Assembly (NCBI GenBank): GCA_051362555.1
Contig: CM120640.1
Span: 21,576,001 to 21,640,000, forward strand
Reading direction: 5' to 3'
DNA from: Lingula anatina
Taxonomy: Eukaryota > Animalia > Brachiopoda
Length of the DNA: 64,000 bases
The position numbers and the translations under genes are program-made. The notes beneath the pieces are model-generated. The model searched no databases, was not told the origin of the DNA, and was given only the letters and a program-made list of their open reading frames with translations. Shown piece by piece: positions 1 through 34,751 of this stretch (positions within the stretch are counted from its first letter, which is position 1; each line of letters begins with the position of its first letter).

Positions 1-219
1 GAATAATAGGTGATTCCTTGGAATACTTCACAGGTTTTAACAATCACGGTTGCCTATACGCAATTGTAAGTGACAGGATGCTCAGAAAGTTTAGTTTCTT
101 CACAGTTCATCCCATAGATTACCTGTCAGATCACTGCTTGCTAGATCTTGCAATTAAATGTTTGGGTTATCAAGAGAAAGATAATGCTAAAATAGTGAAA
201 AACCTTAATGATAGGTCTG
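1..219 (+). mobile_element. Degenerate LINE (non-LTR retrotransposon) ORF2 fragment, C-terminal part of the APE-type endonuclease domain
   Basis: The frame from nt 3 reads IIGDSLEYFTGFNNHGC-LYAIVSDRMLRKFSFFTVHPIDYLSDHCLLDLAIK. This fits the recalled invertebrate LINE endonuclease pattern GD.LG.FT....G.S.(V)DY.IVS ... LSDHC, with the SxxD part apparently deleted. The frame is cut by the satellite at 220. Confidence 0.7.
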
Positions 220-3200
220 GTTAGTAAATTTCATTTTTTAGGGTGGTGGGATGGGTAAATTGAAAAAATCTAATCTGGTTTTTCATTTCTTTTTACAGGA
301 AAAAGAAGATGATGAGCGACCCCACCCGGACATGGACTTCACTGTTGGATTCAAGCAAAGGTTAGTAAATTTCATTTTTTTTTTTGGGTGGTGGGATGGG
401 TAAATTGAAAATAAATCTAATCTCATTTTTCATTTCTTTTTACAGGACAAAGAAGATGATGAGCGACCCCAGCCGGACATGGACTTCAATCTTGGATCCA
501 AGCTAAGGTGAGTAAATTTCATTTTTTTAGGGTGGTAGGATGGGTAAATTGAAACGAAATCTAATCTCGTTTTACATTTCTTTTTACAGGACCAAGTAGA
601 TGATGAGTGACCCCAGCTGGACATGGACTTCACTCTTGGATCCAAGCAAAGGTTAGTAAATTTCATTTTATGGTGTGGTGGGATGGGTAAATTGACAAAA
701 TCTAATCTTGTTTTTCATTTCTTTTTACAGGACAAAGAAGATGATGAGCGACCCCAGCCGGACATGGACTTCACTCTTGGAACCAAGCTAAGGTTAGTAA
801 ATTTCATTTTTTTTAGTGTGGTAGGATGGGTAAATTGAAGCAATCTAATCTGGTTTTTCATTTCTTTTTACAGGACCAAAAAGATGATGAGTGACCCCAG
901 CTGGACATGGACTTCACTCTTGGATCCAAGCAAAGGTTAGTAAATTTCATTTTTTTGGGGTGGTGGGATGGGTAAATTGACAAAATCTAATCTCGTTTTT
1001 CATTTCTTTTTACAGGACCAAGAAGATGATGAGTGACCCCAGCTGGACATGGACTTCACTCTTGGATCCAAGCAAAGGTTAGTAAATTTCATTTTTTTAG
1101 GGTGGTGGGATGGGTAAATTGAAAAAATCTTATCCGGTTTTTCATTTCTTTTTACAGGACAAAGTAGATGATGAGCGACCCCACCCAGACATGGACTTCA
1201 CTCTTGGATCCAAGCTAAGGTTAGTAAATTTCATTTTTTTGGGATAGTGGGAAGGGTAAATTGAAAAAATCTAATCTCGTTTTTCATTTCTTTTTACAGG
1301 ACAAAGAAGATGAGCGACCCCTACTAGACATGGACTTCACTCTTGGATCTAAGGTAAGAAGGTAAGAAAATTTCATTTTTTTGTGGTGGTGGAATGGGTA
1401 AATTGAAAAAATCTAATCTGGTTTTTCATTTGTTTTTACAGGACAAAGAAGATGATGAGCGACCCCACCCGGACATGGACTTCACTCTTGGATTCAAGCA
1501 AAGGTTAGTAAATTTCATTATTTTTTGGGTGGTGGGATGGGTAAATTGAAAATAAATCAAATCTCATTTTTTATTTCTTTTTACAGGACAAAGAAGATGA
1601 TGAGCGACCCCAGCCGGACATGGACTTCACTCTTGGATCTAAGCTAAGGTTAGTAAATTTCATTTTTTAGGGTGGTGGGATGGGTAAATTGAAAAGATCT
1701 AATCTCGTTTTTCATTTCTTTTTACAGGACAAAGAAGATGATGAGCGAACCCCACCCGGACATGGACTTCACTGTTGGATTCAAGCAAAGGTTAGTAAAT
1801 TTCAATTTTTTGGGGGGTGGAGGGATGGGTAAATTGAAAATATATCTAATCTCATTTTTCATTTCTTTTTACAGGACAAAGAAGATGATGAGCGACCCCA
1901 GCCGGACATGGACTTCAATCTTGGATCCAAGCTAAGGTTAGTAAATTTCATTTTTTTAGGGTGGTGGGATGGGTAAATTGAAAAAATCTAATCTAATTTT
2001 TAATTTCTTTTTACAGGACAAAGAAGATGAACGACCCCACCCAGACATGGACTTCACACTTCCATCCAAGCAAAGGTTAGTAAATTTCATTTTTTTGGGG
2101 TGGTGGGATGGGTAAATTGAAAAGATCTAATCTCGTTTTTCATTTCTTTTTACAGGACAAAGAAGATGATGAGCGACCCCACCCGGACATGGACTTCACT
2201 GTTGGATTCAAGCAAAGGTTAGTAAATTTCATTTTTTAGAGTGGTGGGATGGGTAAATTGAAAAAATCTAATCGCGTTTTTAATTTTTTTTACAGTACAA
2301 AGAAGATGAGCGACCCCACCCAGACATGGACTTCACTCTTGGATCCAAGCAAAGGTTAGTAAATTTCATTTTTTTGGGGTGGTGGGATGGGTAAATTGAA
2401 AAGATCTAATTTCATTTTCCATTTCTTTTTACAGGACCAAGAAGATGATGAGCAACCCCAGCCGGACATGGACTTCACTTTTGGATCCAAGCTAAGGTTA
2501 GTAAATTTCATGTTTTTCAGGGTGGTGGGATGGGTAAATTGACAAAATCTAATCTTGTTTTTCATTTCTTTTTACAGGACAAAGAAGATGATGAGCGACC
2601 CCAGCCTGACATGGACTTCACTCTTGGATCCAAGCTAAGGTTAGTAAATTTCATTTTTTTAGGGTGGTGGGATGGGTAAATTGAAAAAATCTAATCTAAT
2701 TTTTTATTTCTTTTTACAGGACAAAGAAGATGAACGACCCCACCCAGACATGGCCTTCACACTTCCATCCAAGCTAAGGTTAGTAAATTTCATTTTTTAG
2801 AGTGGTGGGATGGGTAAATTGAAAAAATCTAATCGCGTTTTTAATTTTTTTTTTTACAGGACAAAGAAGATGAGCGACCCCACCCAGACATGGACTTCAC
2901 TCTTGGATCCAAGCAAAGGTTAGTAAATTTCATTTTTTTAGTGTGGTAGGATGGGTAAATTGAAACAATCTAATCTGGTTTTTCATTTCTTTTTACAGGA
3001 CAAAGAAGATGAGCGACCCCACCTAGACATGGACTTCACTCTTGGATCCAAGCAAAGGTTAGTAAATTTCATTTTTTGGGGGTGCTGAGATGGGTAAATT
3101 GAAAAAATCTTATTTCATTTTTTATTTCTTTTTACAGGTCCAAGAAGATAATGAGCAATCCCAGTCGGACATGGACTTCACTCTTGGATACAAGCAAAGG

Positions 3201-6200
3201 TTAGTAAATTTCACATTTTTTAGGGTGGTGGGATGGATAAATTGTTAAAATCTAATCTGGTTTTTCATTTCTGTTTACAAGACAAAGAAGATGATGAGCG
3301 ACCCCACCCAGACATGGACTTTACTCTTGGATCCAAGCAAAAGTAAGTAAATTTCATTTTATGGGGTGGTGGGATGGGTAAATTGACAAAATTTAATCTC
3401 ATTTTTCATTTCTTTTTACAGGACAAAGAAGATGATGAGCGACCCCACTCGGACATGGACTTCACTTTTGGATCCAAGCTAAGGTTAGTAAATTTCATTT
3501 TTTTAGTGTGGTAGGATGGGTAAATTGAAAAGATCTAATTTCATTTTCCATTTCTTTTTACAGGACCAAGAAGATGATGAGCGACCCCAGCCGGACATGG
3601 ACTTCAATCTTGGATCCAAGCAAAGGTAAGTGAATTTCATTCTTTTAGGGTTGTGGGTTGGGTAAATAGGAAAAATCTAATGTCGTTTTTAATTTCTTTT
3701 TACAGGACAAAGAAGTTGATGAGCGACCCTAGCCTGACATGGACTTCACTCTTGGATCCAAGCTAAGGTTAGTAAATTTCATTTTTTTAGAGTGGTGGGT
3801 TGGGTAAATAGGAAAAATCTAATGTCGTTTTTAATTTCTTTTTACAGGACAAAGAAGATGATGAGCGACCCCACCCAGACATGGACTTCACTCTTGGATC
3901 CAATTTAAGGTTAGTAAATTTAATTTTTTGGGTTGGTGGGATAAGTAAATTGTAAAAATCTAATCTCGTTTTTTATTTCTTTTTACAGGACCAAGAAGAT
4001 GATGAGCGACCCCAGCCGGACATGGACTTCACTCTTGGATCCAAGCAAAGGTTAGTAAATTTCATTTTATGGGGTGGTGGGATGGGTAAAATGACAAAAT
4101 CTAATCTCATTTTTCATTTCTTTTTACAGGACAAAGAAGATGATGAGCGACTCCAGCCGGACATGGACTTCACTCTTGGATCCAAGCAAAGGTTAGTAAA
4201 TTTCATGTTTTTCAGGGTGGTGGGATGGGTAAATTGAAAAAATCTAATCTGGTTTTTCATTTGTTTTTACAGGACAAAGAAGATGATGAGCGAACCCCAC
4301 CCGGACATGGACTTCACTGTTGGATTCAAGCAAAGGTTAGTAAATTTCATTTTTTTGGGGGGTGGTGGGATGGGTAAATTGAAAATATATCTAATCTCAT
4401 TTTTCATTTCTTTTTACAGGACAAAGAAGATGATGAGCGACCCCAGCCGGACATGGGCTTCAATCTTGGATCCAAGCTAAGGTTAGTAAATTTCATTTTT
4501 TTAGGGTGGTAGGATGGGTAAATTGAAACGAAATCTAATCTCGTTTTTCATTTCTTTTTACAGGACAAAGAAGATGATGAGCGACCCCAGCCTGACATGG
4601 ACTTCACTCTTGGATCAAAGCTAAGGTTAGTAAATTTCATTTTTTTAGGGTGGTGGGATGGGTAAATTGAAAAAATCTAATCTAATTTTTAATTTCTTTT
4701 TACAGGACAAAGAAGATGAACGACCCCACCCAGACATGGACTTCACTGTTGGATTCAAGCAAAGGTTAGTAAATTTCATTTTTTTTTGGGTGGTGGGATG
4801 GGTAAATTGAAAATAAATCTAATCTCGTTTTTCATTTCTTTTTACAGGACAAAGAAGATGATGAGTGACCCCACCCTGACATGGACTTCACTCTTGGATC
4901 TAAGCTAAGGTTAGTAAATTTCATTTTTTAGAGTGGTGGGATGGGTAAATTGAAAAAATCTGATCGCGTTTTTAATTTTTTTTACAGGACAAAGAAGATG
5001 AGCGACCCCACCCGGACATGGACTTCACTGTTGGATTCAAGCAAAGGTTAGTAAATTTCATTTTTTTTTGGGTGGTGGGATGGGTAAATTGAAAATAAAT
5101 CTAATCTCGTTTTTCATTTCTTTTTACAGGACAAAGAAGATGATGAGTGACCCCACCCTGACATGGACTTCACTCTTGGATCTAAGCTAAGGTTAGTAAA
5201 TTTCATTTTTTAGAGTGGTGGGATGGGTAAATTGAAAAAATCTGATCGCGTTTTTAATTTTTTTTACAGGACAAAGAAGATGAGCGACCCCACGCAGACA
5301 TGGACTTCACTCTTGGATCCAAGCAAAGGTTAGTAAATTTCATTTTTTTGGGGTGGTGGGATGGGTAAATTGAAAAGATCTAATTTCATTTTCCATTTCT
5401 TTTTACAGGACCAAGAAGATGATGAGCAACCCCAGCCGGACATGGACTTCACTTTTGGATCCAAGCTAAGGTTAGTAAATTTCATGTTTTTCAGGGTGGT
5501 GGGATGGGTAAATTGACAAAATTTAATCTTGTTTTTCATTTCTTTTTACAGGACAAAGAAGATGATGAGTGACCCCACCCGGACATGGACTTCACTGTTG
5601 GATTCAAGCAAAGGTTAGTAAATTTCATTTTTTTTTGGGTGGTGGGATGGGTAAATTGAAAATAAATCTAATCTCATTTTTCATTTCTTTTTACAGGACA
5701 AAGAAGATGATGAGCGACCCCAGCCGGACATGGAGTTCAATCTTGGATCCAAGCAAAGGTTAGTAAATTTCATTTTTTTGGGGTGGTGGGATGGGTAAAT
5801 TGAAAAGATCTTATTTCATTTTTCATGTCTTTTTACAGGACCAAGAAGATGATGAGCGACCCCAGCCAGACATGGACTTCACTCTTGGATCCAAGCAAAG
5901 GTAAGTGAATTTCATTTTTTTAGGGTTGTGGGTTGGGTAAATAGGAAAAATCTAATGTCGTTTTTAATTTCTTTTTACAGGACAAAGAAGATGATGAGCG
6001 ACCCCACCCAGACATAGACTTCACTTTTGGATTCAAGCAAAGGTTAGTAAATTTCATTTTTTTTTTTTTTGGGTGGTGGGATGGGTAAATTGAAAATAAA
6101 TCTAATCTCATTTTTCATTTCTTTTTACAGGACAAAGAAGATGATGAGCGACCCCAGCCGGACATGGACTTCAATCTTGGATCCAAGCTAAGGTTAGTAA

Positions 6201-9200
6201 ATTTCATTTTTTTAGGGTGGTAGGATGGGTAAATTGAAACGAAATCTAATCTCGTTTTTCATTTCTTTTTACAGGACCAAGAAGATGATGAATGACCCCA
6301 GCTGGACATGGTCTTCATTCTTGGATCCAAGCAAAGGTTAGTAAATTTCATTTTATGGAGTGGTGGGATGGGTAAATTGACAAAATCTAATCTTGTTTTT
6401 CATTTCTTTTTACAGGACAAAGAAGATGATGAGCGACCCCAGCCGGACATGGACTTCACTCTTGGAACCAAGCTAAGGTTAGTAAATTTCATTTTTTTTA
6501 GTGTGGTAGGATGGGTAAATTGAAACAATTTAATCTGGTTTTTCATTTCTTTTTACAGGACCAAAAAGATGATGAGTGACCCCAGCTGGACATGGACTTC
6601 ACTCTTGGATCCAAGCAAAGGTTAGTAAATTTCATTTTTTTGGGGTGGTGGGATGGGTAAATTGACAAAATCTAATCTTGTTTTTCATTTCTTTTTACAG
6701 GACCAAGAAGATGATGAGTGACCCCAGCTGGACATGGACTTCACTCTTGGATCCAAGCAAAGGTTAGTAAATTTCATTTTTTGGGTTGGTGGGATGAGTA
6801 AATTGTAAAAATCTAATCTCGTTTTTCATTTCTTTTTACAGGACAAAGAAGATGATGAGCGACCCCAGCTAGACATGGACTTCACTCTTGGATCCAATCT
6901 AAGGTAAGTAAATTTTATTTTTTGGGTTGGTGGGATGGGTAAATTGAAAATAAATCTAATCTCATTTTTCATTTCTTTTTACAGGACAAAGAAGATGAGC
7001 GACCCCAGCCGGACATGGAGTTCAATCTTGGATCCAAGCAAAGGTTAGTAAATTTCATTTTTTTGGGGTGGTGGGATGGGTAAATTGAAAAGATCTAATT
7101 TCATTTTTCATTTCTTTTTACAGGACCAAGAAGATGATGAGCGATCCCAGCCAGACATGGACTTCACTCTTGGATCCAAGCAAAGGTTAGTAAATTTCAT
7201 TTTTTTAGAGAGGTGGGTTGGGTAAATAGGAAAAATCTAATGTCGTTTTTAATTTCTTTTTATAGGACAAAGAAGATGATGAGCGACCCCACCCAGACAT
7301 GGACTTCACTCTTGGATCCAATTTTAAGGTTAGTAAATTTCATTTTTTGGGTTGGTGGGATAAGTAAATTGTAAAAATCTAATCTTGTTTTTCATTTCTT
7401 TTTACAGGACAAAGAAGATGATGAGCGACCCCAGCTAGACATGGACTTCACTCTTGGATCCAATCTAAGGTAAGTAAATTTTATTTTTTGGGTTGGTGGG
7501 ATAAGTAAATTGTAAAAATCTAATCTCCTTTTTCTTTCTTTTTACAGGACAAAAAAGATGATGAGCGACCCCACCCGGACATGGACTTCACTCTTGGATT
7601 CAAGCAAAGGTTAGTAAATTTCATTTTTTAGGGTGGTGGGATGGGTAAATTGAAAAAATCTTATCTGGTTTTTCATTTCTTTTTACAGGACAAAGTAGAT
7701 GATGAGCGACCCCACCCAGACATAGACTTCACTCTTGGATCCAAGCTAAGGTTAGTAAATTTCATTTTTTTAGGATAGTGGGAAGGGTAAATTGAAAAAA
7801 ATCTAATCTCGTTTTTCATTTCTTTTTACAGGACAAAGAAGATAAGCGACCCCACCTATATATGGACTTCACTCTTGGATCCAAGCTAAGGTTAGTAAAT
7901 TTCATTTTTTTAGTGTGGTAGGATGGGTAAATTGAAACAATCTAATCTGGTTTTTCATTTTTTTTTACAGGACAAAGAAGATAAGCGACCCCACCTAGAC
8001 ATGGACTTCACTCTTGGATCCAAGCAAAGGTTAGTAAATTTCAATTTTTTGGGGGTGCTGAGATGGGTAAATTGAAAAAATCTTATTTCATTTTTTATTT
8101 CTTTTTACAGGACCAAGAAGATAATGAGCAATCCCAGTCGGACATGGACTTCACTCTTGGATACAAGCAAAGGTTAGTAAATTTCACATTTTTTAGGGTG
8201 GTGGGATGGGTAAATTGTTAAAATCTAATCTGGTTTTTCATTTCTGTTTACAGGACAAAGAAGATGATGAGCGACCCCACCCAGACATGGACTTTACTCT
8301 TGGATCCAAGCAAAAGTAAGTAAATTTCATTTTATGGGGTGGTGTGATGGGTAAATTGACAAAATTTAATCTCATTTTTCATTTCTTTTTACAGGACAAA
8401 GAAGATGATGAGCGACCCCACTCGGACATGGACTTCACTTTTGGATCCAAGCTAAGGTTAGTAAATTTCATTTTTTTAGTGTGGTAGGATGGGTAAATTG
8501 AAACAATCTAATCTGGTTTTTCATTTCTTTTTACAGGACCAAGAAGATGATGAGCGACTCCAGCCGGACATGGACTTCACTCTTGGATCCAAGCAAAGGT
8601 AAGTGAATTTCATTCTTTTAGGGTTGTGGGTTGGGTAAATAGGAAAAATCTAATGTCGTTTTTAATTTCTTTTTACAGGACAAAGAAGTTGATGAGCGAC
8701 CCTAGCCTGACATGGACTTCACTCTTGGATCCAAGCTAAGGTTAGTAAATTTCATTTTTTTAGAGTGGTGGGTTGGGTAAATAGGAAAAATCTAATGTCG
8801 TTTTTAATTTCTTTTTACAGGACAAAGAAGATGATGAGCGACCCCACCCAGACATGGACTTCATTCTTGGATCCAATTTAAGGTTAGTAAATTTAATTTT
8901 ATGGGGTGGTGGGATGGGTAAAATGACAAAATCTAATCTCATTTTTCATTTCTTTTTACAGGACAAAGAAGATGATGAGCGACTCCAGCCGGACATGGAC
9001 TTCACTCTTGGATCCAAGCTAAGGTTAGTAAATTTCATGTTTTTCAGGGTGGTGGGATGGGTAAATTGAACAAATCTAATCTGGTTTTTCATTTCTTTTT
9101 ACAGGACAAAGAAGATGATGAGCGACCCTACCCGGACATGGACTTCACTGTTCGATTCAAGCAAAGGTTAGTAAATTTCATTTTTTTGGGTGGTGGGATG

Positions 9201-9814
9201 GGTAAATTGAAACAATCTAATCTGGTTTTTCATTTCTTTTTACACGACCAAGAAGATGATGAGTGACCCCAGCCGGACATGGACTTTACTCTTGGATCCA
9301 ATCTAAGGTTAGTAAATTTCATTTTTTGGGTTGGTGGGATAAGTAAATTGTAAAAATCTAATCACGTTTTTCATTTCTTTTTACAAGACAAAGAAGATGA
9401 TGAGCTACCCCAGCCGGACATGGACTTCACTCTTGGATCCAAGCAAAGGTTAGTAAATTTCATTTTATGGGGTGGTGGGATGGGTAAATTGACAAAATCT
9501 AATCTAATTTTTCATTTCTTTTTACAGGACCAAGAAGATGATGAGTGACCCCTCCCAGACATGGACTTCACTCTTGGATCCAAGCTAAGGTTAGTATATT
9601 TCATTTTTTTGAAATAGTGGGAAGGGTAAATTGAAAAAATCTAATCTCGTTTTTCATTTCTTTTTAGAGGACAAAGAAGAAGAGCGACCCCATCCAGACA
9701 TGGACTTCACTCTTGGATCCAATCTAAGGTTAGTAAATTTCATTTTTTGGGTTGGTGGGATAAGTAAATTGTAAAAATCCAATCTCATTTTTCATTTCTT
9801 TTTACAGGACCAAG

Positions 9815-12800
9815 AAGATGATGAGCGACCCCAGCCGGACATGGACTTCACTCTTGGATCCAAGCAAAGGTAAGTGAATTTCATTCTTTTAGGGTTGTGG
9901 GTTGGGTAAATAGGAAAAATCTAATGTCGTTTTTAATTTCTTTTTACAGGACAAAGAAGATGATGAGCGACCCTAGCCTGACATGGACTTCACTCTTGGA
10001 TCCAAGCTAAGGTTAGTAAATTTCATTTTTTTAGAGTGGTGGGTTGGGTAAATAGGAAAAATCTAATGTCGTTTTTAATTTCTTTTTACAGGACAAAGAA
10101 GATGAACGACCCCACCCAGACATGGACTTCACACTTCCATCCAAGCAAAGGTTAGTAAATTTCATTTTTTTTAGGGTGGTGGGTTGGGTAAATTGAAACA
10201 ATCTAATCTGGTTTTACATTTCTTTTTACAGGACCAAGAAGATGATGAGCGACCCCAGCCGGACATGGACTTCACTCTTGGATCCAAGCAAAGGTAAGTA
10301 AATTTCATTTTTTTAGAGTGGTGGGTTGGATATATAGGAAAAATCTAATGTCGTTTTTAATTTCTTTTTACAGGACAAAGAAGATGATGAGCGACCCCAC
10401 CCAGACATGGACTTCACTCTTGGATCCAAGCAAAGGTTAGTAAATTTCATTTCATGGGGTGGTGGGATGGGTAAATTGACAAAATCTAATCTTATTTTTC
10501 ATTTCTTTTTACAGGACAAAGAAGATGATGAGCGACTCCAGCCCGACATGGACTTCACTCTTGGATCCAAGCAAAGGTTAGTAAATTTCATTTTTTCAGG
10601 GTGGTGGGATGGGAAAATTGAAAAAATCTAATCTGGTTTTTCATTTCTCTTTACAGGACCAAGAAGATGATGAGCAACCTCAGCCGGACATGGACTTCAC
10701 TCTTGGATCCAATCTAAGGTTAGTAAATTTCATTTTTTGGGTTGGTGGGAAAAGTAAATTGTAAAAATCTAATCACGTTTTTCTTTCTTTTTACAGGACA
10801 AAAAAGATGATGAGGGACCCCAGCCGGACATGGACTTCACTCTTGGATCCAATCTAAGGTTAGTAAATTTCATTTTTTGGGTTGGTGGGATAAGTACATT
10901 ATAAAAATCTAATCTCGTTTTTCATTTCTTTTTACAGGACAAAGAAGATGATGAGCGACCCCAGTCGAACATGGACTTCACACTTCCATCCAAGCAAAGG
11001 TTAGTAAATTTCATTTTTTTAGGGTGGTGGGTTGGGTAAATTGAAACAATCTAATCTGGTTTTACATTTCTTTTTACAGGACCAAGAAGATGATAAGCGA
11101 CCCCAGCCGGACATGGACTTCACTCTTGGATCCAAGCAAAGGTAAGTAAATTTCATTTTTTTAGAGTGGTGGGTTGGGTATATAGGAAAAATCTAATGTC
11201 GTTTTTAATTTCTTTTTACAGGACAAAGAAGATGATGAGCGACCCCAGCCGGACATGGACTTCACTCTTGGATCCAAGCAAAGGTAAGTGAATTTCATTC
11301 TTTTAGGGTTGTGGGTTGGGTAAATAGGAAAAATCTAATGTCGTTTTTAATTTCTTTTTACAGGACAAAGAAGATGATGAGCGACCCTAGCCTGACATGG
11401 ACTTCACTCTTGGATCCAAGCTAAGGTTAGTAAATTTCATTTTTTTAGAGTGGTGGGTTGGGTAAATAGGAAAAATCTAATGTCGTTTTTAATTTCTTTT
11501 TACAGGACAAAGAAGATGAACGACCCCACCCAGACATGGACTTCACACTTCCATCCAAGCAAAGGTTAGTAAATTTCATTTTTTTTAGGGTGGTGGGTTG
11601 GGTAAATTGAAACAATCTAATCTGGTTTTACATTTCTTTTTACAGGACCAAGAAGATGATGAGCGACCCCAGCCGGACATGGACTTCACTCTTGGATCCA
11701 AGCAAAGGTAAGTAAATTTCATTTTTTTAGAGTGGTGGGTTGGATATATAGGAAAAATCTAATGTCGTTTTTAATTTCTTTTTACAGGACAAAGAAGATG
11801 ATGAGCGACCCCACCCAGACATGGACTTCACTCTTGGATCCAAGCAAAGGTTAGTAAATTTCATTTCATGGGGTGGTGGGATGGGTAAATTGACAAAATC
11901 TAATCTTATTTTTCATTTCTTTTTACAGGACAAAGAAGATGATGAGCGACTCCAGCCCGACATGGACTTCACTCTTGGATCCAAGCAAAGGTTAGTAAAT
12001 TTCATTTTTTCAGGGTGGTGGGATGGGAAAATTGAAAAAATCTAATTTGGTTTTTCATTTCTCTTTACAGGACCAAGAAGATGATGAGCAACCCCAGCCG
12101 GACATGGACTTCACTCTTGGATCCAATCTAAGGTTAGTAAATTTCATTTTTTGGGTTGGTGGGAAAAGTAAATTGTAAAAATCTAATCACGTTTTTCTTT
12201 CTTTTTACAGGACAAAAAAGATGATGAGGGACCCCAGCCGGACATGGACTTCACTCTTGGATCCAATCTAAGGTTAGTAAATTTCATTTTTTGGGTTGGT
12301 GGGATAAGTACATTATAAAAATCTAATCTCGTTTTTCATTTCTTTTTACAGGACAAAGAAGATGATGAGCGACCCCAGTCGAACATGGACTTCACACTTC
12401 CATCCAAGCAAAGGTTAGTAAATTTCATTTTTTTAGGGTGGTGGGTTGGGTAAATTGAAACAATCTAATCTGGTTTTACATTTCTTTTTACAGGACCAAG
12501 AAGATGATAAGCGACCCCAGCCGGACATGGACTTCACTCTTGGATCCAAGCAAAGGTAAGTAAATTTCATTTTTTTAGAGTGGTGGGTTGGGTATATAGG
12601 AAAAATCTAATGTCGTTTTTAATTTCTTTTTACAGGACAAAGAAGATGATGAGCGACCCCAGCCGGACATGGACTTCACTCTTGGATCCAAGCAAAGGTA
12701 AGTGAATTTCATTCTTTTAGGGTTGTGGGTTGGGTAAATAGGAAAAATCTAATGTCGTTTTTAATTTCTTTTTACAGGACAAAGAAGATGATGAGCGACC

Positions 12801-14070
12801 CTAGCCTGACATGGACTTCACTCTTGGATCCAAGCTAAGGTTAGTAAATTTCATTTTTTTAGAGTGGTGGGTTGGGTAAATAGGAAAAATCTAATGTCGT
12901 TTTTAATTTCTTTTTACAGGACAAAGAAGATGAACGACCCCACCCAGACATGGACTTCACACTTCCATCCAAGCAAAGGTTAGTAAATTTCATTTTTTTT
13001 AGGGTGGTGGGTTGGGTAAATTGAAACAATCTAATCTGGTTTTACATTTCTTTTTACAGGACCAAGAAGATGATGAGCGACCCCAGCCGGACATGGACTT
13101 CACTCTTGGATCCAAGCAAAGGTAAGTAAATTTCATTTTTTTAGAGTGGTGGGTTGGATATATAGGAAAAATCTAATGTCGTTTTTAATTTCTTTTTACA
13201 GGACAAAGAAGATGATGAGCGACCCCACCCAGACATGGACTTCACTCTTGGATCCAAGCAAAGGTTAGTAAATTTCATTTCATGGGGTGGTGGGATGGGT
13301 AAATTGACAAAATCTAATCTTATTTTTCATTTCTTTTTACAGGACAAAGAAGATGATGAGCGACTCCAGCCCGACATGGACTTCACTCTTGGATCCAAGC
13401 AAAGGTTAGTAAATTTCATTTTTTCAGGGTGGTGGGATGGGAAAATTGAAAAAATCTAATCTGGTTTTTCATTTCTCTTTACAGGACCAAGAAGATGATG
13501 AGCAACCCCAGCCGGACATGGACTTCACTCTTGGATCCAATCTAAGGTTAGTAAATTTCATTTTTTGGGTTGGTGGGAAAAGTAAATTGTAAAAATCTAA
13601 TCACGTTTTTCTTTCTTTTTACAGGACAAAAAAGATGATGAGGGACCCCAGCCGGACATGGACTTCACTCTTGGATCCAATCTAAGGTTAGTAAATTTCA
13701 TTTTTTGGGTTGGTGGGATAAGTACATTATAAAAATCTAATCTCGTTTTTCATTTCTTTTTACAGGACAAAGAAGATGATGAGCGACCCCAGTCGAACAT
13801 GGACTTCACACTTCCATCCAAGCAAAGGTTAGTAAATTTCATTTTTTTAGGGTGGTGGGTTGGGTAAATTGAAACAATCTAATCTGGTTTTACATTTCTT
13901 TTTACAGGACCAAGAAGATGATAAGCGACCCCAGCCGGACATGGACTTCACTCTTGGATCCAAGCAAAGGTAAGTAAATTTCATTTTTTTAGAGTGGTGG
14001 GTTGGGTATATAGGAAAAATCTAATGTCGTTTTTAATTTCTTTTTACAGGACAAAGAAGATGATGAGCGA
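9815..14070 (+). repeat. Higher-order repeat, 10 monomers (1414 bp) x3
   Basis: Identical ORFs at 10407, 11821 and 13235, and identical variant monomers at 9841, 11255 and 12669, give a period of exactly 1414 bp. Boundaries are approximate. Confidence 0.9.
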
Positions 14071-14082
14071 CCCCACCCAGAC

Positions 14083-23000: not shown

Positions 23001-24350
23001 CATGGACTTCACTCTTGGATCCAAGCAAAGGTAAGTAAATTTCATTTTTTTAGAGTGGTGGGTTGGATATATAGGAAAAATCTAATGTCGTTTTTAATTT
23101 CTTTTTACAGGACAAAGAAGATGATGAGCGACCCCACCCAGACATGGACTTCACTCTTGGATCCAAGCAAAGGTTAGTAAATTTCATTTCATGGGGTGGT
23201 GGGATGGGTAAATTGACAAAATCTAATCTTATTTTTCATTTCTTTTTACAGGACAAAGAAGATGATGAGCGACTCCAGCCCGACATGGACTTCACTCTTG
23301 GATCTAAGCTAAGGTTAGTAAATTTCATTTTTTAGGGTGGTGGGATGGGTAAATTGAAAAGATCTAATCTCTTTTTTCATTTCTTTTTACAGGACAAAGA
23401 AGATGATGAGCGAACCCCACCCGAACATGGACTTCACTGTTGGATTCAAGCAAAGGTTAGTAAATTTCATTTTTTTGGGGGGTGGTGGGATGGGTAAATT
23501 GAAAATATATCTAATCTCATTTTTCATTTCTTTTTACAGGACAAAGAAGATGATGAGCGACCCCAGCCGGACATGGGCTTCAATCTTGGATCCAAGCTAA
23601 GGTTAGTAAATTTCATTGTGTTAGGGTGGTAGGATGGCTAAATTGAAACGAAATCTAATCTCGTTTTTCATTTCTTTTTACAGGACAAAGAAGATGATGA
23701 GCGACCCCAGCCTGACATGGACTTCACTCTTGGATCAAAGCTAAGGTTAGTAAATTTCATTTTTTTAGGGTGGTGGGATGGGTAAATTGAAAAAATCTAA
23801 TCTAATTTTTAATTTCTTTTTACAGGACAAAGAAGATGAACGACCCCACCCAAACATGGACTTCACACTTCCATCCAAGCAAAGGTTAGTAAATTTCATT
23901 TTTTTGGGGTGGTGGGATGGGTAAATTGAAAAGATCTAATCTCGTTTTTCATTTCTTTTTACAGGACAAAGAAGATGATGAGCGACCCCACCCGGACATG
24001 GACTTCACTGTTGGATTCAAGCAAAGGTTAGTAAATTTCATTTTTTTTTGGGTGGTGGGATGGGTTAATTGAAAATAAATCTTATCTCGTTTTTCATTTC
24101 TTTTTACAGGACAAAGAAGATGATGAGTGACCCCACCCTGACATGGACTTCACTCTTGGATCTAAGCTAAGGTTAGTAAATTTCATTTTTTAGAGAGGTG
24201 GGATGGGTAAATTGAAAAAATCTGATCGCGTTTTTAATTTTTTTTACAGGACAAAGAAGATGAGCGACCCCACCCAGACATGGACTTCACTCTTGGATCC
24301 AAGCAAAGGTTAGTAAATTTAATTTTTTTGGGGTGGTGGGATGGGTAAAT
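14083..24350 (+). repeat. Higher-order repeat, ~32 monomers (~4.53 kb) x ~2.3
   Basis: Matching variant ORFs at 14083/18615/23144, 14342/18874/23403, 16213/20744 and 16416/20947 (offsets 4529-4532). Confidence 0.85.
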
Positions 24351-27300
24351 TGAAAAGATCTAATTTCATTTTCCATTTCTTTTTACAGGACCAAGAAGAT
24401 GATGAGCAACCCCAGCCGGACATGGACTTCACTTTTGGATCCAAGCTAAGGTTAGTAAATTTCATGTTTTTCAGGGTGGTGGGATGGGTAAATTGACAAA
24501 ATTTAATCTTGTTTTTCATTTCTTTTTACAGGACAAAGAAGATGATGAGTGACCCCACCCGGACATGGACTTCACTGTTGGATTCAAGCAAAGGTTAGTA
24601 AATTTCATTTTTTTTTGGGTGGTGGGATGGGTAAATTGAAAATAAATCTAATCTCATTTTTCATTTCTTTTTACAGGACAAAGAAGATGATGAGCGACCC
24701 CAGCCGGACATGGAGTTCAATCTTGGATCCAAGCAAAGGTTAGTAAATTTCATTTTTTTGGGGTGGTGGGATGGGTAAATTGAAAAGATCTTATTTCATT
24801 TTTCATGTCTTTTTACAGGACCAACAAGATGATGAGCGACCCCAGCCAGACATGGACTTCACTCTTGGATCCAAGCAAAGGTAAGTGAATTTCATTTTTT
24901 TAGGGTTGTGGGTTGGGTAAATAGGAAAAATCTAATGTCGTTTTTAATTTCTTTTTACAGGACAAAGAAGATGATGAGCGACCCCACCCAGACATAGACT
25001 TCACTGTTGGATTCAAGCAAAGGTTAGTAAATTTCATTTTTTTTTTTGGGTGGTGGGATGGGTAAATTGAAAATAAATCTAATCTTATTTTTCATTTCTT
25101 TTTACAGGACAAAGAAGATGATGAGCGACCCCAGCCGGACATGGACTTCAATCTTGGATCCAAGCTAAGGTTAGTAAATTTCATTTTTTTAGGGTGGTAG
25201 GATGGGTAAATTGAAACGAAATCTAATCTCGTTTTTCATTTCTTTTTACAGGACCAAGAAGATGATGAGTGACCCCAGCTGGACATGGACTTCACTCTTG
25301 GATCCAAGCAAAGGTTAGTAAATTTCATTTTATGGAGTGGTGGGATGGGTACATTGACAAAATCTAATCTTGTTTTTCATTTCTTTTTACAGGACAAAGA
25401 AGATGATGAGCGACCCCAGCCAGACATGGACTTCACTCTTGGATCCAAGCAAAGGTTAGTAAATTTCATTTTTTGGGTTAGTGGGATAAGTAAATTGTAA
25501 AAATCTAATCTCATTTTTCATTTCTTTTTACAGGACAAAGAAGATGATGAGCGACCCCAGCTAGACATGGACTTCACTCTTGGATCCAATCTAAGGTAAG
25601 TAAATTTTATTTTTTGGGTTGGTGGGATGGGTAAATTGAAAATAAATCTAATCTCATTTTTCATTTCTTTTTACAGGACAAAGAAGATGAGCGACCCCAG
25701 CCGGACATGGAGTTCAATCTTGGATCCAAGCAAAGGTTAGTAAATTTCATTTTTTTGGGGTGGTGGGATGGGTAAATTGAAAAGATCTAATTTCATTTTT
25801 CATTTCTTTTTACAGGACCAAGAAGATGATGAGCGATCCCAGCCAGACATGGACTTCACTCTTGGATCCAAGCAAAGGTTAGTAAATTTCATTTTTTTAG
25901 AGTGGTGGGTTGGGTAAATAGGAAAAATCTAATGTCGTTTTTAATTTCTTTTTATAGGACAAAGAAGATGATGAGTGACCCCACCCAGACATGGACTTCA
26001 CTCTTGGATCCAATTTTAAGGTTAGTAAATTTCATTTTTTGGGTTGGTGGGATAAGTAAATTGTAAAAATCTAATCATGTTTTTCATTTCTTTTTACAGG
26101 ACAAAGAAGATGATGAGCGACACCAGCTAGACATGGACTTCACTCTTGGATCCAATCTAAGGTAAGTAAATTTTATTTTTTGGGTTGGTGGGATAAGTAA
26201 ATTGTAAAAATCTAATCTCCTTTTTCTTTCTTTTTACAGGACAAAAAAGATGATGAGCGACCCCACCCGGACATGGACTTCACTCTTGGATTCAAGCAAA
26301 GGTTAGTAAATTTCATTTTTTTAGGGTGGTGGGATGGGTAAATTGAAAAAATCTTATCTGGTTTTTCATTTCTTTTTACAGGACAAAGTAGATGATGAGC
26401 GACCCCACCCAGACATAGACTTCACTCTTGGATCCAAGCTAAGGTTAGTAAATTTCATTTTTTTGGGATAGTGGGAAGGGTAAATTGAAAAAAATCTAAT
26501 CTCGTTTTTCATTTCTTTTTACAGGACAAAGAAGATAAGCGACCCCACCTATATATGGACTTCACTCTTGGATCCAAGCTAAGGTTAGTAAATTTCATTT
26601 TTTTAGTGTGGTAGGATGGGTAAATTGAAACAATCTAATCTGGTTTTTCATTTCTTTTTACAGGACAAAGAAGATAAGCGACCCCACCTAGACATGGACT
26701 TCACTCTTGGATCCAAGCAAAGGTTAGTAAATTTCATTTTTTGGGGGTGCTGAGATGGGTAAATTGAAAAAATCTTATTTCATTTTTTATTTCTTTTTAC
26801 AGGACCAAGAAGATAATGAGCAATCCCAGTCGGACATGGACTTCACTCTTGGATACAAGCAAAGGTTAGTAAATTTCACATTTTTTAGGGTGGTGGGATG
26901 GGTAAATTGTTAAAATCTAATCTGGTTTTTCATTTCTGTTTACAGGACAAAGAAGATGATGAGCGACCCCACCCAGACATGGACTTTACTCTTGGATCCA
27001 AGCAAAAGTAAGTAAATTTCATTTTATGGGGTGGTGTGATGGGTAAATTGACAAAATTTAATCTCATTTTTCATTTCTTTTTACAGGACAAAGAAGATGA
27101 TGAGCGACCCCACTCGGACATGGACTTCACTTTTGGATCCAAGCTAAGGTTAGTAAATTTCATTTTTTTAGTGTGGTAGGATGGGTAAATTGAAACAATC
27201 TAATCTGGTTTTTCATTTCTTTTTACAGGACCAAGAAGATGATGAGCGACCCCAGCCGGACATGGACTTCACTCTTGGATCCAAGCAAAGGTAAGTGAAT

Positions 27301-30300
27301 TTCATTCTTTTAGGGTTGTGGGTTGGGTAAATAGGAAAAATCTAATGTCGTTTTTAATTTCTTTTTACAGGACAAAGAAGTTGATGAGCGACCCTAGCCT
27401 GACATGGACTTCATTCTTGGATCCAATTTAAGGTTAGTAAATTTAATTTTTTGGGTTGGTGGGATAAGTAAATTGTAAAAATCTAATCTCGTTTTTCATT
27501 TCTTTTTACAGGACCAAGAAGATGATGAGCGACCCCAGTCGGACATGGACTTCACTCTTGGATACAAGCAAAGGTTAGTAAATTTCATTTTATGGGGTGG
27601 TGGGATGGGTAAAATGACAAAATCTAATCTCATTTTTCATTTCTTTTTACAGGACAAAGAAGATGATGAGCGACTCCAGCCGGACATGGACTTCACTCTT
27701 GGATCCAAGCTAAGGTTAGTAAATTTCATGTTTTTCAGGGTGGTGGGATGGGTAAATTGAAAAAATCAAATCTGGTTTTTCATTTCTTTTTACACGACCA
27801 AGAAGATGATGAGCGACCCTACCCGGACATGGACTTCACTGTTCGATTCAAGCAAAGGTTAGTAAATTTCATTTTTTTGGGTGGTGGGATGGGTAAATTG
27901 AAACAATCTAATCTGGTTTTTCATTTCTTTTTACACGACCAAGAAGATGATGAGTGACCCCAGCCGGACATGGACTTTAATCTAAGGTTAGTAAATTTCA
28001 TTTTTTGGGTTGGTGGGATAAGTAAATTGTAAAAATGTAATCACGTTTTTCATTTCTTTTTACAAGACAAAGAAGATGATGAGCTACCCCAGCCGGACAT
28101 GGACTTCCCTCTTGGATCCAAGCAAAGGTTAGTAAATTTCATTTTATGCGGTGGTGGGATGGGTAAATTGACAAAATCTAATCTAATTTTTCATTTCTTT
28201 TTACAGGACCAAGAAGATGACGAGTGACCCCTCCCAGACATGGACTTCACTCTTGGATCCAAGCTAAGGTTAGTATATTTCATTTTTTTGAAATAGTGGG
28301 AAGGGTAAATTGAAAAAATCTAATCTCGTTTTTCATTTCTTTTTAGAGGACAAAGAAGAAGAGCGACCCCATCCAGACATGGACTTCACTCTTGGATCCA
28401 ATCTAAGGTTAGTAAATTTCATTTTTTGGGTTGGTGGGATAAGTAAATTGTAAAAATCCAACCTCATTTTTCATTTCTTTTTACAGGACCAAGAAGTTGA
28501 TGAGCGACCCTAGCCTGACATGGACTTCACTCTTGGATCCAAGCTAAGGTTAGTAAATTTCATTTTTTTAGAGTGGTGGGTTGGGTAAATAGGAAAAATC
28601 TAATGTCGTTTTTAATTTCTTTTTACAGGACAAAGAAGATGAACGACCCCACCCAGACATGGACTTCACACTTCGATCCAAGCAAAGGTTAGTAAATTTC
28701 ATTTTTTTAGGGTGGTGGGTTGGGTAAATTGAAACAATCTAATCTGGTTTTACATTTCTTTTTACAGGACCAAGAAGATGATGAGCGACCCCAGCCGGAC
28801 ATGGACTTCACTCTTGGATCCAAGCAAAGGTAAGTAAATTTCATTTTTTTAGAGTGGTGGGTTGGATATATAGGAAAAATCTAATGTCGTTTTTAATTTC
28901 TTTTTACAGGACAAAGAAGATGATGAGCGACCCCACCCAGACATGGACTTCACTCTTGGATCCAAGCAAAGGTTAGTAAATTTCATTTCATGGGGTGGTG
29001 GGATGGGTAAATTGACAAAATCTAATCTTATTTTTCATTTCTTTTTACAGGACAAAGAAGATGATGAGCGACTCCAGCCCGACATGGACTTCACTCTTGG
29101 ATCCAAGCAAAGGTTAGTAAATTTCATTTTTTCAGGGTGGTGGGATGGGAAAATTGAAAAAATCTAATCTGGTTTTTCATTTCTCTTTACAGGACCAAGA
29201 AGATGATGAGCGACCCCAGCCGGACATGGACTTCACTCTTGGATCCAATCTAAGGTTAGTAAATTTCATTTTTTGGGTTGGTGGGAAAAGTAAATTGTAA
29301 AAATCTAATCACGTTTTTCTTTCTTTTTACAGGACAAAAAAGATGATGAGGGACCCCAGCCGGACATGGACTTCACTCTTGGATCCAATCTAAGGTTAGT
29401 AAATTTCATTTTTTGGGTTGGTGGGATAAGTAAATTATAAAAATCTAATCTCGTTTTTCATTTCTTTTTACAGGACAAAGAAGATGATGAGCGACCCCAG
29501 TCGAACATGGACTTCACACTTCGATCCAAGCAAAGGTTAGTAAATTTCATTTTTTTAGGGTGGTGGGTTGGGTAAATTGAAACATTCTAATCTGGTTTTA
29601 CATTTCTTTTTACAGGACCAAGAAGATGATAAGCGACCCCAGCCGGACATGGACTTCACTCTTGGATCCAAGCAAAGGTTAGTAAATTTCATTTTTTCAG
29701 GGTGGTGGGATGGGTAAATTGACAAAATCTTATCTCGTTTTTCATTTCTTTTTACAGGACAAAGAAGATGAGCGACCCCACCTAGACATGGACTTCACTC
29801 TTGGATCCAAGCTAAGGTTATTAAATTTCATTTTTTTAGTGTGGTAGGATGGGTATATAGGAAAAATCTAATGTCGTTTTTAATTTCTTTTTACAGGACA
29901 AAGAAGATGATGAGCGACTCCAGCCCGACATGGACTTCACTCTTGGATCCAAGCAAAGGTTAGTAAATTTCATTTTTTCAGGGTGGTGGGATGGGAAAAT
30001 TGAAAAAATCTAATCTGGTTTTTCATTTCTCTTTACAGGACCAAGAAGATGATGAGCGACCCCAGCCGGACATGGACTTCACTCTTGGATCCAATCTAAG
30101 GTTAGTAAATTTCATTTTTTGGGTTGGTGGGAAAAGTAAATTGTAAAAATCTAATCACGTTTTTCTTTCTTTTTACAGGACAAAAAAGATGATGAGGGAC
30201 CCCAGCCGGACATGGACTTCACTCTTGGATCCAATCTAAGGTTAGTAAATTTCATTTTTTGGGTTGGTGGGATAAGTAAATTGTAAAAATCTAATCTCGT

Positions 30301-32829
30301 TTTTCTTTCTTTTTACAGGACAAAAAAGATGATGAGCGACCCCACCCGGACATGGACTTCACTCTTGGATCCAATCTAAGGTTAGTAAATTTCATTTTTT
30401 GGGTTGGTGGGATAAGTAAATTATAAAAATCTAATCTCGTTTTTCATTTCTTTTTACAGGACAAAGAAGATGATGAGCGACCCCAGTCGGACATGGACTT
30501 CCCTCTTGGATCCAAGCAAAGGTTAGTAAATTTCATTTTATGGGGTGGTGGGATGGGTAAATTGACAAAATCTTATCTCGTTTTTCATTTCTTTTTACAG
30601 GACAAAGAAGATGAGCGACCCCACCTAGACATGGACTTCACTCTTGGATCCAAGCTAAGGTTAGTAAATTTCATTTTTTTAGTGTGGTAGGATGGGTATA
30701 TAGGAAAAATCTAATGTCGTTTTTAATTTCTTTTTACAGGACCAAGAAGATGATGAGCGACCCCAGCCGGACATGGACTTCACTCTTGGATCCAAGCAAA
30801 GGTAAGTAAATTTCATTTTTTTAGAGTGGTGGGTTGGGTATATAGGAAAAATCTAATGTCGTTTTTAATTTCTTTTTACAGGACAAAGAAGATGATGAGC
30901 AACCCCACCCAGACATGGACTTCACTCTTGGATCCAAGCAAAGGTTAGTAAATTTCATTTCATGGGGTGGTGGGATGGGTAAATTGACAAAATCTAATCT
31001 CATTTTTCATTACTTTTTACAGGACAAAGAAGATGATGAGCGACTCCAGCCGGACATGGACTTCACTCTTGGATCCAAGCTAAGGTTAGTAAATTTCATT
31101 TTTTTTCAGGGTGGTGGGATGGGAAAATTGAAAAAATCTAATCTGGTTTTTCATTTCTCTTTACAGGACCAAGAAGATGATGAGCGACCCCAGCCGGACA
31201 TGGACTTCACTCTTGGATCCAATCTAAGGTTAGTAAATTTCATTTTTTGGGTTGGTGGGAAAAGTAAATTGTAAAAATCTAATCTCGTTTTTCTTTCTTT
31301 TTACAGGACAAAAAAGATGATGAGCGACCCCACCCGGACATGGACTTCACTCTTGGATCCAATCTAAGGTTAGTAAATTTCATTTTTTGGGTTGGTGGGA
31401 TAAGTAAATTATAAAAATCTAATCTCGTTTTTCATTTCTTTTTACAGGACAAAGAAGATGATGAGCGACCCCAGTCGGACATGGACTTCCCTCTTGGATC
31501 CAAGCAAAGGTTAGTAAATTTCATTTTATGTGGTGGTGGGATGGGTAAATTGACAAAATCTTATCTCATTTTTCATTTCTTTTTACAGGACAAAGAAGAT
31601 GATGAGCGACCCCTCCCAGACATGGACTTCACTCTTGGATCCAAGCTAAGGTTAGTATTTTTTTGGAATAGTGGGAAGGGTAAATTGAAAGAAACTATTC
31701 TCGTTTTTCATTTCTTTTTAGAGGACAAAGAAGAAGAAGAGCGACCCCACCCAGACATGGACTTCACTCTTGGATCCAATCTAAGGTTAGTAAATTTCAT
31801 TTTTTGGGTTGGTGGGATAAGTAAATTGTAAAAATCCAATCTCATTTTTCATTTCTTTTTACATGACCAAGAAGATGATGAGCGACCCCAGCCGGACATG
31901 GACTTCACTCTTGGATCCAATCTAAGGTTAGTAAATTTCATTTTTTGGGTTGGTGGGATAAGTAAATTGTAAAAATCTAATCTTATTTTTCATTTCTTTT
32001 TACAGGACAAAGAAGATGATGAGCGACTCCAGCCCGACATGGACTTCACTCTTGGATCCAAGCAAAGGTTAGTAAATTTCATTTTTTCAGGGTGGTGGGA
32101 TGGGAAAATTGAAAAAATCTAATCTGGTTTTTCATTTCTCTTTACAGGACCAAGAAGATGATGAGCGACCCCAGCCGGACATGGACTTCACTCTTGGATC
32201 CAATCTAAGGTTAGTAAATTTCATTTTTTGGGTTGGTGGGAAAAGTAAATTGTAAAAATCTAATCACGTTTTTCTTTCTTTTTACAGGACAAAAAAGATG
32301 ATGAGGGACCCCACCCGGACATGGACTTCACTCTTGGATCCAATCTAAGGTTAGTAAATTTCATTTTTTGGGTTGGTGGGATAAGTAAATTGTAAAAATC
32401 TAATCTCGTTTTTCTTTCTTTTTACAGGACAAAAAAGATGATGAGCGACCCCACCCGGACATGGACTTCACTCTTGGATCCAATCTAAGGTTAGTAAATT
32501 TCATTTTTTGGGTTGGTGGGATAAGTAAATTATAAAAATCTAATCTCGTTTTTCATTTCTTTTTACAGGACAAAGAAGATGATGAGCGACCCCAGTCGGA
32601 CATGGACTTCCCTCTTGGATCCAAGCAAAGGTTAGTAAATTTCATTTTATGGGGTGGTGGGATGGGTAAATTGACAAAATCTTATCTCGTTTTTCATTTC
32701 TTTTTACAGGACAAAGAAGATGAGCGACCCCACCTAGACATGGACTTCACTCTTGGATCCAAGCTAAGGTTAGTAAATTTCATTTTTTTAGTGTGGTAGG
32801 ATGGGTAAATTGAAACAATCTAATCTGGT

Positions 32830-34240
32830 TTTTCATTTCTTTTTACAGGACAAAGAAGATGAGCGACCCCACCTAGACATGGACTTCACTCTTGGATCCA
32901 ATCTAAGGTTAGTAAATTTCATTTTTTGGGTTGGTGGGATAAGTACAATGTAAATTGTAAAAATCCAATCTCATTTTTCATTTCTTTTTACAGGACAAAG
33001 AAGATGATCAGCGACCCCACCCGGACATGGACTTCACTTTTGGATCCAAGCTAAGGTTAGTAAATTTCATTTTTTTAGTGTGGTAGGATGGGTAAATTGA
33101 AACAATCTAATCTGGTTATTCATTTCTTTTTACAGGACAAAGAAGATGATGAGCGACCCCACCCGGACATGGACCTCACTGTTGGATCCAAGCAAAGGTT
33201 AGTAAATTTAATTTTATGGGGTGGTGGGATGGGTAAATTGATAAAATCTAATCTCATTTTTCATTTCTTTTTACAGGACCAAGAAGATAATGAGCTATCC
33301 CAGTCGGACATGGACTTCACTCTTGGATCCAAGCAAAGGTTAGTAAATTTCATGTTTTTTAGGGTGGTGGGATGGGTAAATTGAAAAAATCTAATCTGGT
33401 TTTTCATTTCTTTTTACAGGACAAAGAAGATGATGAGCGACCCCACCCAGACATGGACTTCACTCTTGGATCCAAGCTAAGGTTAGTAAATTTCATTTTA
33501 TGGGGTGGTGGGATGGGTAAATTGACAAAATCTTATCTCGTTTTTCATTTCTTTTTACAGGACAAAGAAGATGAGCGACCCCACCTAGACATGGACTTCA
33601 CTCTTGGATCCAATCTAAGGTTAGTAAATTTCATTTTTTGGGTTGGTGGGATAAGTACAATGTAAATTGTAAAAATCCAATCTCATTTTTCATTTCTTTT
33701 TACAGGACAAAGAAGATGATCAGCGACCCCACCCGGACATGGACTTCACTTTTGGATCCAAGCTAAGGTTAGTAAATTTCATTTTTTTAGTGTGGTAGGA
33801 TGGGTAAATTGAAACAATCTAATCTGGTTATTCATTTCTTTTTACAGGACAAAGAAGATGATGAGCGACCCCACCCGGACATGGACCTCACTGTTGGATC
33901 CAAGCAAAGGTTAGTAAATTTAATTTTATGGGGTGGTGGGATGGGTAAATTGATAAAATCTAATCTCATTTTTCATTTCTTTTTACAGGACCAAGAAGAT
34001 AATGAGCTATCCCAGTCGGACATGGACTTCACTCTTGGATCCAAGCAAAGGTTAGTAAATTTCATGTTTTTTAGGGTGGTGGGATGGGTAAATTGAAAAA
34101 ATCTAATCTGGTTTTTCATTTCTTTTTACAGGACAAAGAAGATGATGAGCGACCCCACCCAGACATGGACTTCACTCTTGGATCCAAGCTAAGGTTAGTA
34201 AATTTCATTTTATGGGGTGGTGGGATGGGTAAATTGACAA
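32830..34240 (+). repeat. Higher-order repeat, 5 monomers (712 bp) x2
   Basis: A diagnostic insertion AAGTACAATGTAAATT occurs at 32941 and 33653, and identical ORFs start at 33088 and 33800. Confidence 0.9.
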
Positions 34241-34751
34241 AATCTAATCTCATTTTTCATTTCTTTTTACAGGACAAAGAAGATGATGAGCGACCCCACC
34301 CGGACATGGTCTTTACTTTTGGATCCAAGCTAAGGTTAGTAAATTTCATTTTTTTAGTGTGGTAGGATGGGTAAATTGAAACAATCTAATCTGGTTTTTC
34401 ATTTCTTTTTACAGGACCAAGAAGATGATGAGCGACCCCACGTAGACATGGACTTCACCCCTGGATCCAAGCTAATGTAAGTAAATGTCATTTTTTTAGG
34501 GTGGTGGGATGGGTAAATAGGAAAAATCTTATCTCGTTTTTCATTTCTTTTTACAGGACAAAGAAGATGATGAGCGACCCCACCCAGACATGGACTTCAC
34601 TCTTGGATCCAAGCTTAGGTTAGTAAATTTCATTTCTTTTGGGGTGGTGGGATGGGTAAATAGAAAAAATCTAATTTCGTTTTTCATTTCTTTTTACAGG
34701 TTAAAGAAGATGATGAGTGACCCCACCTGGACATGGACTTTTTGATGCAAT

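Follow-up and report, generated by a model that had tools for sequence, protein, structure and literature searches.

A stretch of 64,000 nucleotides from the brachiopod Lingula anatina (assembly GCA_051362555.1, contig CM120640.1, positions 21,576,001 to 21,640,000 of the forward strand), referred to below as the window, was found to contain a single tandem array in which each unit consists of a short intron followed by a short exon. The splice sites are real for this repeat family, which is transcribed from the + strand and spliced from exon to exon at the predicted positions. The features of the window are given in Table 1.

Table 1. Array, flanking sequences and neighbouring gene exons in the window (a slash marks the splice site).
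Feature	Position	Strand	Remark
Tandem array, 244 intron plus exon units of ~142 bp	220-34740	+	Irregular higher-order blocks
First intron	220-298	+	Donor CTG/GTTAGT adjoins the 5' flank directly
First 62-nt exon	299-360	+
Intron of the medoid (most central) unit	33339-33419	+	Donor, T-run, G-runs, branch motif, pyrimidine tract, CAG
62-nt exon serving as read template (medoid unit)	33420-33481	+	Read joins from exon end to exon start
Last complete exon	34557-34618	+	Same join in 7 X1 reads
Last intron	34619-34699	+
Last exon, 41 nt, fused to dispersed repeat	34700-34740	+
5' flank with SDH motif, open over 72 codons up to the first donor	3-218	+	Likely end of a LINE (long interspersed nuclear element) endonuclease domain (lead only)
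3' flank, dispersed repeat entered part-way exactly at 34740	34741-35456	.	Read depth; 22-nt match at 36265-36286
Candidate first coding exon, spectraplakin/plectin-type gene	40247-40382	+	5.5 kb downstream of the array; phase fits CH1 exon at 49461
Second candidate alternative first coding exon, same gene	~47340-47480	+	Ends in phase 1, as does 40247-40382; fits the exon at 49461
Further exons of the spectraplakin/plectin-type gene	49461-49522, 54797-54886, 55082-55159	+
CH1-domain exon of the spectraplakin/plectin-type gene	55460-55552	+	Best matches plectin and MACF1, E ~3e-13

Organization of the tandem array

The array was reported by Tandem Repeats Finder at 219-34740 (period 142, 243.9 copies, 88% matches), and parsing of positions 220-34740 resolved it into 244 head-to-tail intron plus exon units, 161 of them distinct. 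The introns measure 73-88 nt (80 nt in 100 of the 244) and have a GC content of 28%; that of the exons is 49%. An earlier note, made from the sequence alone, had described about 244 tandem exon-intron modules with exons of 62 nt. The number of units was confirmed, and the exon length of 62 nt holds for 200 of them, the rest measuring 59 nt (35 exons), 63 nt (7) and 50 nt (1), with 41 nt for the last. The overall architecture of donor, intron, branch motif, pyrimidine tract, acceptor and exon is as that note described, although not every monomer is intact as it had claimed. The donor GT is present in all 244 units, most frequently as AAG/GTTAGT (204); the perfect AAG/GTAAGT, which had been called frequent, accounts for only 29, and the single GTGAGT donor was located at 508, near which it had been noted. 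The acceptor AG is kept in 233 units, with CAG/G in 224, and is broken in the other 11 (CAA in five, CAC in five and CAT in one). A branch-type CTRAY motif begins 28-31 nt upstream of the intron end in 206 units, and donor, branch motif and acceptor are found together in 198. One unit has two AAG/GTAAGA donors 8 nt apart, created by an 8-nt duplication at 1354-1362, giving an exon of either 54 or 62 nt.

A run of G triplets (GGGTGGTGGGATGGG-type) is present in every intron, approximately 22-37 nt past the donor, and the diverged copies seen in RNA reads are still G-rich there. In short introns, G-run intronic enhancers act at such a position. The intron G-run is complementary to a C-run in the exon, and the predicted pairing was not beyond that of shuffles (24 of 200).

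The composition of the unit was assessed by a rule-based module test at three stringencies, which employed consensus motifs from general knowledge and rules that were set after the monomer had been inspected. The test was passed by 118, 190 and 196 of 243 real units, as compared with 0, 2 and 27 of 20,000 dinucleotide shuffles of the consensus and none of 1,453 circularised non-array 142-mers. By the same rules, the monomer scores 8/9 for its donor and 15/16 for its pyrimidine tract; five donors of the neighbouring gene score 6-8, and four acceptors 10-11. Given that the rules are post hoc and that the array represents one amplified event, the RNA joins described below are a stronger proof than the shuffles.

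Two array units differ by a mean of 16 in 142 positions, and almost identical pairs recur at lags of 10, 32, 52, 84 and 132 units, which indicates nested block duplications. The three kinds of broken acceptor were duplicated together with the blocks in which they lie, and they are tolerated in 11 of the 244 units. Changes per site on the tree of units amount to 1.6 in the donor region, 1.2 in the pyrimidine tract and 1.8 at the acceptor, and to 2.9 in the middle of the intron and 3.4 in the exon body. Throughout the units G and C are more prone to change than A and T; after base matching, 60 changes were counted in the splice signals where 84 were expected (p 0.047, tree changes), and conservation of the signals by allele count gave p 0.13. 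The commonest donor change is T to A at position +3, found in 36 units and directed towards the consensus.

Splicing of the array in silico yields 14,994 nt (14,984 nt in an earlier parse), of which the longest open stretch is 81 codons. Stops occur in 36, 114 and 239 of the 244 exons in the three frames, with frame 0 open in 208. Every join of 62-nt exons changes the reading frame, and one of the frames has a stop in 239 exons, so that no long protein can result. Substitution rates across units show no codon-position pattern. Searches for protein homologues of the exon repeat returned 0 of 135 candidates at E 10; a 31-residue query found no match at E 0.001 among 1.84 billion representatives, and an Atlas search was also without a match. 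With short queries and a signal of 20 residues, all three are weak negatives. A coding tandem-exon repeat was rejected for the array on the basis of its 62/59-nt exons, at most 81 open codons and the lack of a protein match. No Rfam family matched at gathering score across the 64 kb, with chance-level matches only in 1-3000, and the folds examined were no better than shuffles (z -0.33, 0.62, -1.09 and -0.15). A host of small nucleolar RNAs (snoRNAs) or mirtrons was likewise rejected, since there is no Rfam match and no hairpin in the 80-nt intron. A box-C-like ATGATGA is present inside the exon, without a fixed box D.

Splicing of the repeat family in RNA

RNA data were taken from seven of nine raw-read runs carrying the same species label, with 6-30% of each run being read. 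The 3' end of the array was compared with runs X1, X4, X7 and X5, and a single unit (33380-33520) with X1, X2, X3 and X9; X1 provides the same data at both places, and these are not independent. Runs X1, X2 and X3 are three polyA RNA samples of one study (P1). On the single unit, 65 of 12,427,783 records were obtained for X1, 41 of 12,366,745 for X2, 46 of 11,919,429 for X3 and 3 of 11,514,100 for X9. Expression of the repeat family is low, at 3-5 reads per million with all copies summed (X1-X3).

The earlier note had stated that an absence of junction-spanning RNA reads would speak against splicing, and such reads were found in X1, X2 and X3. The join leads from 33479 to 33418, which, given three shared letters, is equivalent to 33481 to 33420 and corresponds to the predicted GT and AG. 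It was seen in 7 reads of X1, 2 of X2, 9 of X3 and none of X9, with 3, 2 and 6 read starts in X1, X2 and X3, respectively. The best exact-join read in both X1 and X3 has 62 nt on its shorter side, which in reads of at most 151 nt leaves no space for an 80-nt intron. Nine more reads carry variant joins, namely, four in X1 with a diverged tail (62 nt in total), three in X1 into a 59-nt exon, and two in X3. The first mate of every joining read maps to the minus strand; with most types of stranded library this corresponds to + strand RNA, and it matches the GT-AG orientation.

Read depth is in line with these joins. On the single unit the sense depth of X1 is 34-61 in the exon versus 12-16 just inside the intron past the donor, and at the array 3' end X1 reaches depths of 42 and 32 in exons versus 7-10 in introns, in a single orientation and with joins from exon end to exon start. 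Depth on the opposite strand is flat over exon and intron (4-6 in X2, 7-8 in X3) and serves as an internal control. Sense depth just past the donor, where the intron is kept, was 16, 8 and 9 in X1, X2 and X3, as compared to 14, 2 and 11 joins. Roughly half of the donor-crossing sense reads of the family are spliced, and this fraction is undercounted because diverged tails fall among the loose ends described below. The view of the array as an amplified exon and intron unit, one of two offered in the earlier note, is upheld at the level of the repeat family. The other, a transcribed and spliced RNA, is upheld at that level too by the exon-exon joins; a fully spliced form of about 15 kb is hypothetical, as about half of these reads keep the intron.

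Within the unit, the reads align over the exon and the two ends of the intron, and the middle of the intron is for the most part below the 80% needed for alignment (depth 0-4 at 33500-33520), as expected if splice-proximal sequence is constrained. Some loose ends consist of exon tails less than 80% alike that connect to the start of the exon (11 X1 and 3 X2 reads), and in 4 reads of X2 the donor is joined to a non-array sequence, which was not found in the window. In addition, a related sequence shares the acceptor and the first 20 exon bases and then diverges (4, 5 and 10 reads in X1-X3). The sequence leaving the exon after 20 nt, probably present in 3 X9 reads as well, is a possible source gene or sister family and does not occur in the window. 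Taken together, the diverged tails, the non-array partner, the 20-nt relative and the misalignment of the intron middle indicate that the repeat family is wider and older than the array.

A spliced-leader gene has a leader exon with a donor only, which is joined abundantly to many different mRNAs. A spliced-leader array was considered and rejected: the units have acceptors, the joins are between exons, there is one non-array partner (4 reads), and the molecules have no common start site.

Flanks and the neighbouring gene

The array ends adjoin a LINE-like fragment on the 5' side, where 219 nt are visible, and a dispersed repeat on the 3' side, with no host exon seen at either end. For the 5' flank, the nearest named Atlas cluster is Exo_endo_phos_2 (0.93, 145 shared features), an endonuclease-reverse transcriptase domain, which is regarded as a lead only; a Pfam search and a homologue search with this flank were blank. 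On the 3' side, X7 depth is in the hundreds from 34740, and 1,143 reads run into other sequence before that position. The AATAAA that follows the array was rejected as a poly(A) site, because the motif belongs to the dispersed repeat and an RNA end was not called at this position. In X1, X4, X7 and X5, reads pile up to very high depth on a short repeat element at 34830-34930, whose upstream neighbours are many and varied. Further downstream, 36692-37436 and 38203-39242 are long inverted, internally repeated copies of a dispersed element (72-77% alike, 162-bp subunit) that resembles a non-autonomous transposon. In the rest of the 64-kb window no other monomer remnants were found.

The candidate first coding exon at 40247-40382 contains what we take to be a spectraplakin family motif. 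Since this plectin/MACF1-type gene is on the same strand as the array and has two candidate first exons, the array could sit in an intron of a further-upstream isoform. Introns of this gene contain recent tandem duplications at 44262-44775 (256 bp x 2, 98%) and at 56725-56916 (96 bp x 2, with long G runs).

Origin of the array and comparison with known systems

The best reading of the array is that of a "complete mirage," a term that refers to the amphioxus repeats discussed below, in which a whole intron-exon unit was amplified by block duplication. The starting point would have been the tandem duplication of a segment that contained a complete short intron and 62 nt of exon, each copy bringing its own donor and acceptor, and growth to 244 units would have followed by the block duplications whose structure is observed, likely through unequal crossing-over. 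RNA polymerase II would read the + strand, as judged from the family reads, from an upstream promoter that may be supplied, for example, by the LINE-like flank or by a spectraplakin promoter. As every copy has both splice sites, the spliceosome would treat the transcribed array as a chain of exons and would remove about half of the introns, the proportion observed for the repeat family. The product, computed to contain no long protein, would probably undergo decay or nuclear retention. We hold with moderate confidence that the 244-copy array is likely transcribed at a low level and spliced in part, like its family, into non-coding RNA, and that its copy number has no selected role. The transcript to which the array likely belongs would be non-coding and extremely rich in exons, and it is probably a by-product of runaway DNA duplication and not a protein gene.

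Several observations weigh against this interpretation. Joins were found in three of the seven runs, all from study P1, and none in X4, X5, X7 and X9, which stem from two other studies; X4, X5 and X9 have almost no reads on the unit, and X7, which is apparently unstranded, is evenly covered at a depth of 6-10 over exon and intron, with no join. A search of indexed runs listed none, whether RNA or DNA, that contains the sequence. No read is at least 99% alike to the array, the reads being 80-99% alike. Four read alleles (23/126, 21/96, 21/86 and 17/87 read bases; 18-24%), from a check of 13 sites chosen from the read table for their support, are present in 0 of 244 units, and four read-derived tails are absent from the window. 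Because the array lacks these alleles and tails, the reads may come from other loci or from diverged populations. Lastly, the conservation of splice signals within the array is borderline and fits "no selection" as well as "weak selection."

The absent alleles and tails would also be explained if the array were a silent, recently homogenised offshoot between repeats and the source of the spliced reads were an older gene at another place, whose repeated exons have diverged and which possibly once coded or still codes for an acidic 21-codon repeat. The loose ends, comprising diverged tails on the exon start, the non-array partner and the 20-nt relative (19 reads, three runs), point in the same direction, as do the repeat-like sequence at both array ends, the lack of a further monomer remnant in the rest of the window, the openness of frame 0 in most exons, and one tail consensus of low agreement (0.7) that would give a 63-nt in-frame exon. 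However, divergence between the RNA donors and the assembled animal would look identical, and the flanking-repeat reads of X1, X4 and X5 are also mostly less than 95% alike. Among the read variants, several have the exon lengths of the array, 62 or 59 nt, and no protein with such a repeat was found with the short queries, a weak negative. On balance, a silent array of this type appears rather unlikely. It is very unlikely that the joins reflect something other than linear cis-splicing, either single-exon back-spliced circles or an intron-less (retro-copied) DNA array of exons. A template of one unit cannot separate a linear unit-to-unit splice from a back-splice, as the join goes back 62 in both cases, but the libraries were polyA selected, the joins are on one strand only, and all 244 units in the window keep the intron; moreover, some reads have about 100 nt of unlike sequence ahead of the matching exon start, which implies that successive exons differ. 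Least credible of all is an ordinary AT-rich satellite that resembles splice signals by chance. An amplified monomer is a single draw, and T-runs are common in such genomes, but the low pass rates of shuffles and flanking 142-mers in the module test and the position of the RNA joins exactly on the predicted GT and AG argue against it, and unless the junction reads are artefacts they already contradict it.

A different question is whether the RNA has a function. An architectural long non-coding RNA (lncRNA) of up to 15 kb of 62-nt exons, in which some 240 splicing events would load RNA-binding proteins in the manner of FIRRE or the SNORD116 host transcript 116HG, is consistent with exact-site splicing in three samples, with the retention of splice-proximal sequence while the intron middle diverges, with the borderline constraint within the array and with the existence of repeat-exon lncRNAs that have a function. 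It is nonetheless improbable: all copies together give 3-5 reads per million, about half of them unspliced, the two other studies provide next to no signal, there is no stable structure or Rfam family, and the last exon is truncated, without a definite RNA end. The boldest version, which we likewise consider improbable, is a single functional non-coding gene of about 244 exons with an intron every 142 bases that would act, through its hundreds of splicing events and its identical 62-nt modules, as a nuclear RNA-protein scaffold or as a tuner of the spectraplakin gene.

Under the block-duplication interpretation, the monomer of a satellite can function as an exon-intron cassette, and tandem amplification alone can make hundreds of introns and exons in one step. 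The 161 natural unit variants, which include broken acceptors, improved donors and length variants, form an allelic series for the study of splice-site choice, skipping and exon-size limits. The interest of the array is evolutionary if its RNA is only waste, whereas a retained and functional RNA would be a new extreme of repeat-exon lncRNAs outside mammals. Should the functional gene of about 244 exons exist, it would be among the most densely spliced RNAs known, with satellite and multi-exon gene being the same object.

NBPF/Olduvai, titin and the collagens are coding genes with tandemly amplified exons that keep the frame. The array resembles them in that exon-intron units were multiplied in tandem; unlike theirs, its exons are 62 or 59 nt long and the frame closes within about three units. 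In the literature, as represented by titles and abstract openings and with thin coverage of subscription papers, neither a satellite of whole spliced exon-intron units nor this particular repeat was found. The comparisons that follow are based on the available portions of the cited papers. In the repeating RNA domain (RRD) of FIRRE, a discontinuous local repeat recurs in 7 of 13 human and 11 of 23 mouse exons, binds hnRNPU and retains the RNA in the nucleus (PMC4820808). FIRRE and the array have in common a non-coding RNA with one repeat recurring as separate exons, whereas the 244 array units are contiguous. The introns of the SNORD116/115 host arrays (116HG) carry C/D snoRNAs, with 29 and 47 human copies, and the RNA forms a nuclear cloud (PMC3792690, PMC4742849). 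Here too, tandem non-coding exons and introns are spliced into an lncRNA, as seen for the array at the family level, but the 80-nt array intron has no Rfam match or stable hairpin and the unit is only 142 bp. The array thus resembles 116HG and FIRRE in layout only.

Mirage minisatellites have been described for Adh3, the globins BflGb6 and BflGb9, troponin C and PGBD5 in amphioxus (lancelet), where one exon-intron border was copied a few times and normal splicing was reported to be undisturbed (PMC3087553, PMC3902484). Array and mirages share head-to-tail copies that span splice sites as well as concerted evolution, and mirage units reach 150-160 bp. Mirages contain one border, with 3-6 copies in BflGb6, and are located in a coding gene, whereas the array has both borders in 244 copies and shows no host exon at either end. 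As in mirages, the repeat spans the exon-intron boundary; each unit has a donor and an acceptor, and both are used in the family RNA. Mirages are further characterized by extra splice signals that remain unused, but copies of the array family are spliced to each other, with unit-to-unit joins in three of the seven runs. As the array would arise like a mirage but the signals of its family are used, it is not classed as one. Intron gain by duplication is the model that was proposed for mirages (PMC3087553), and the array represents an extreme of this model.

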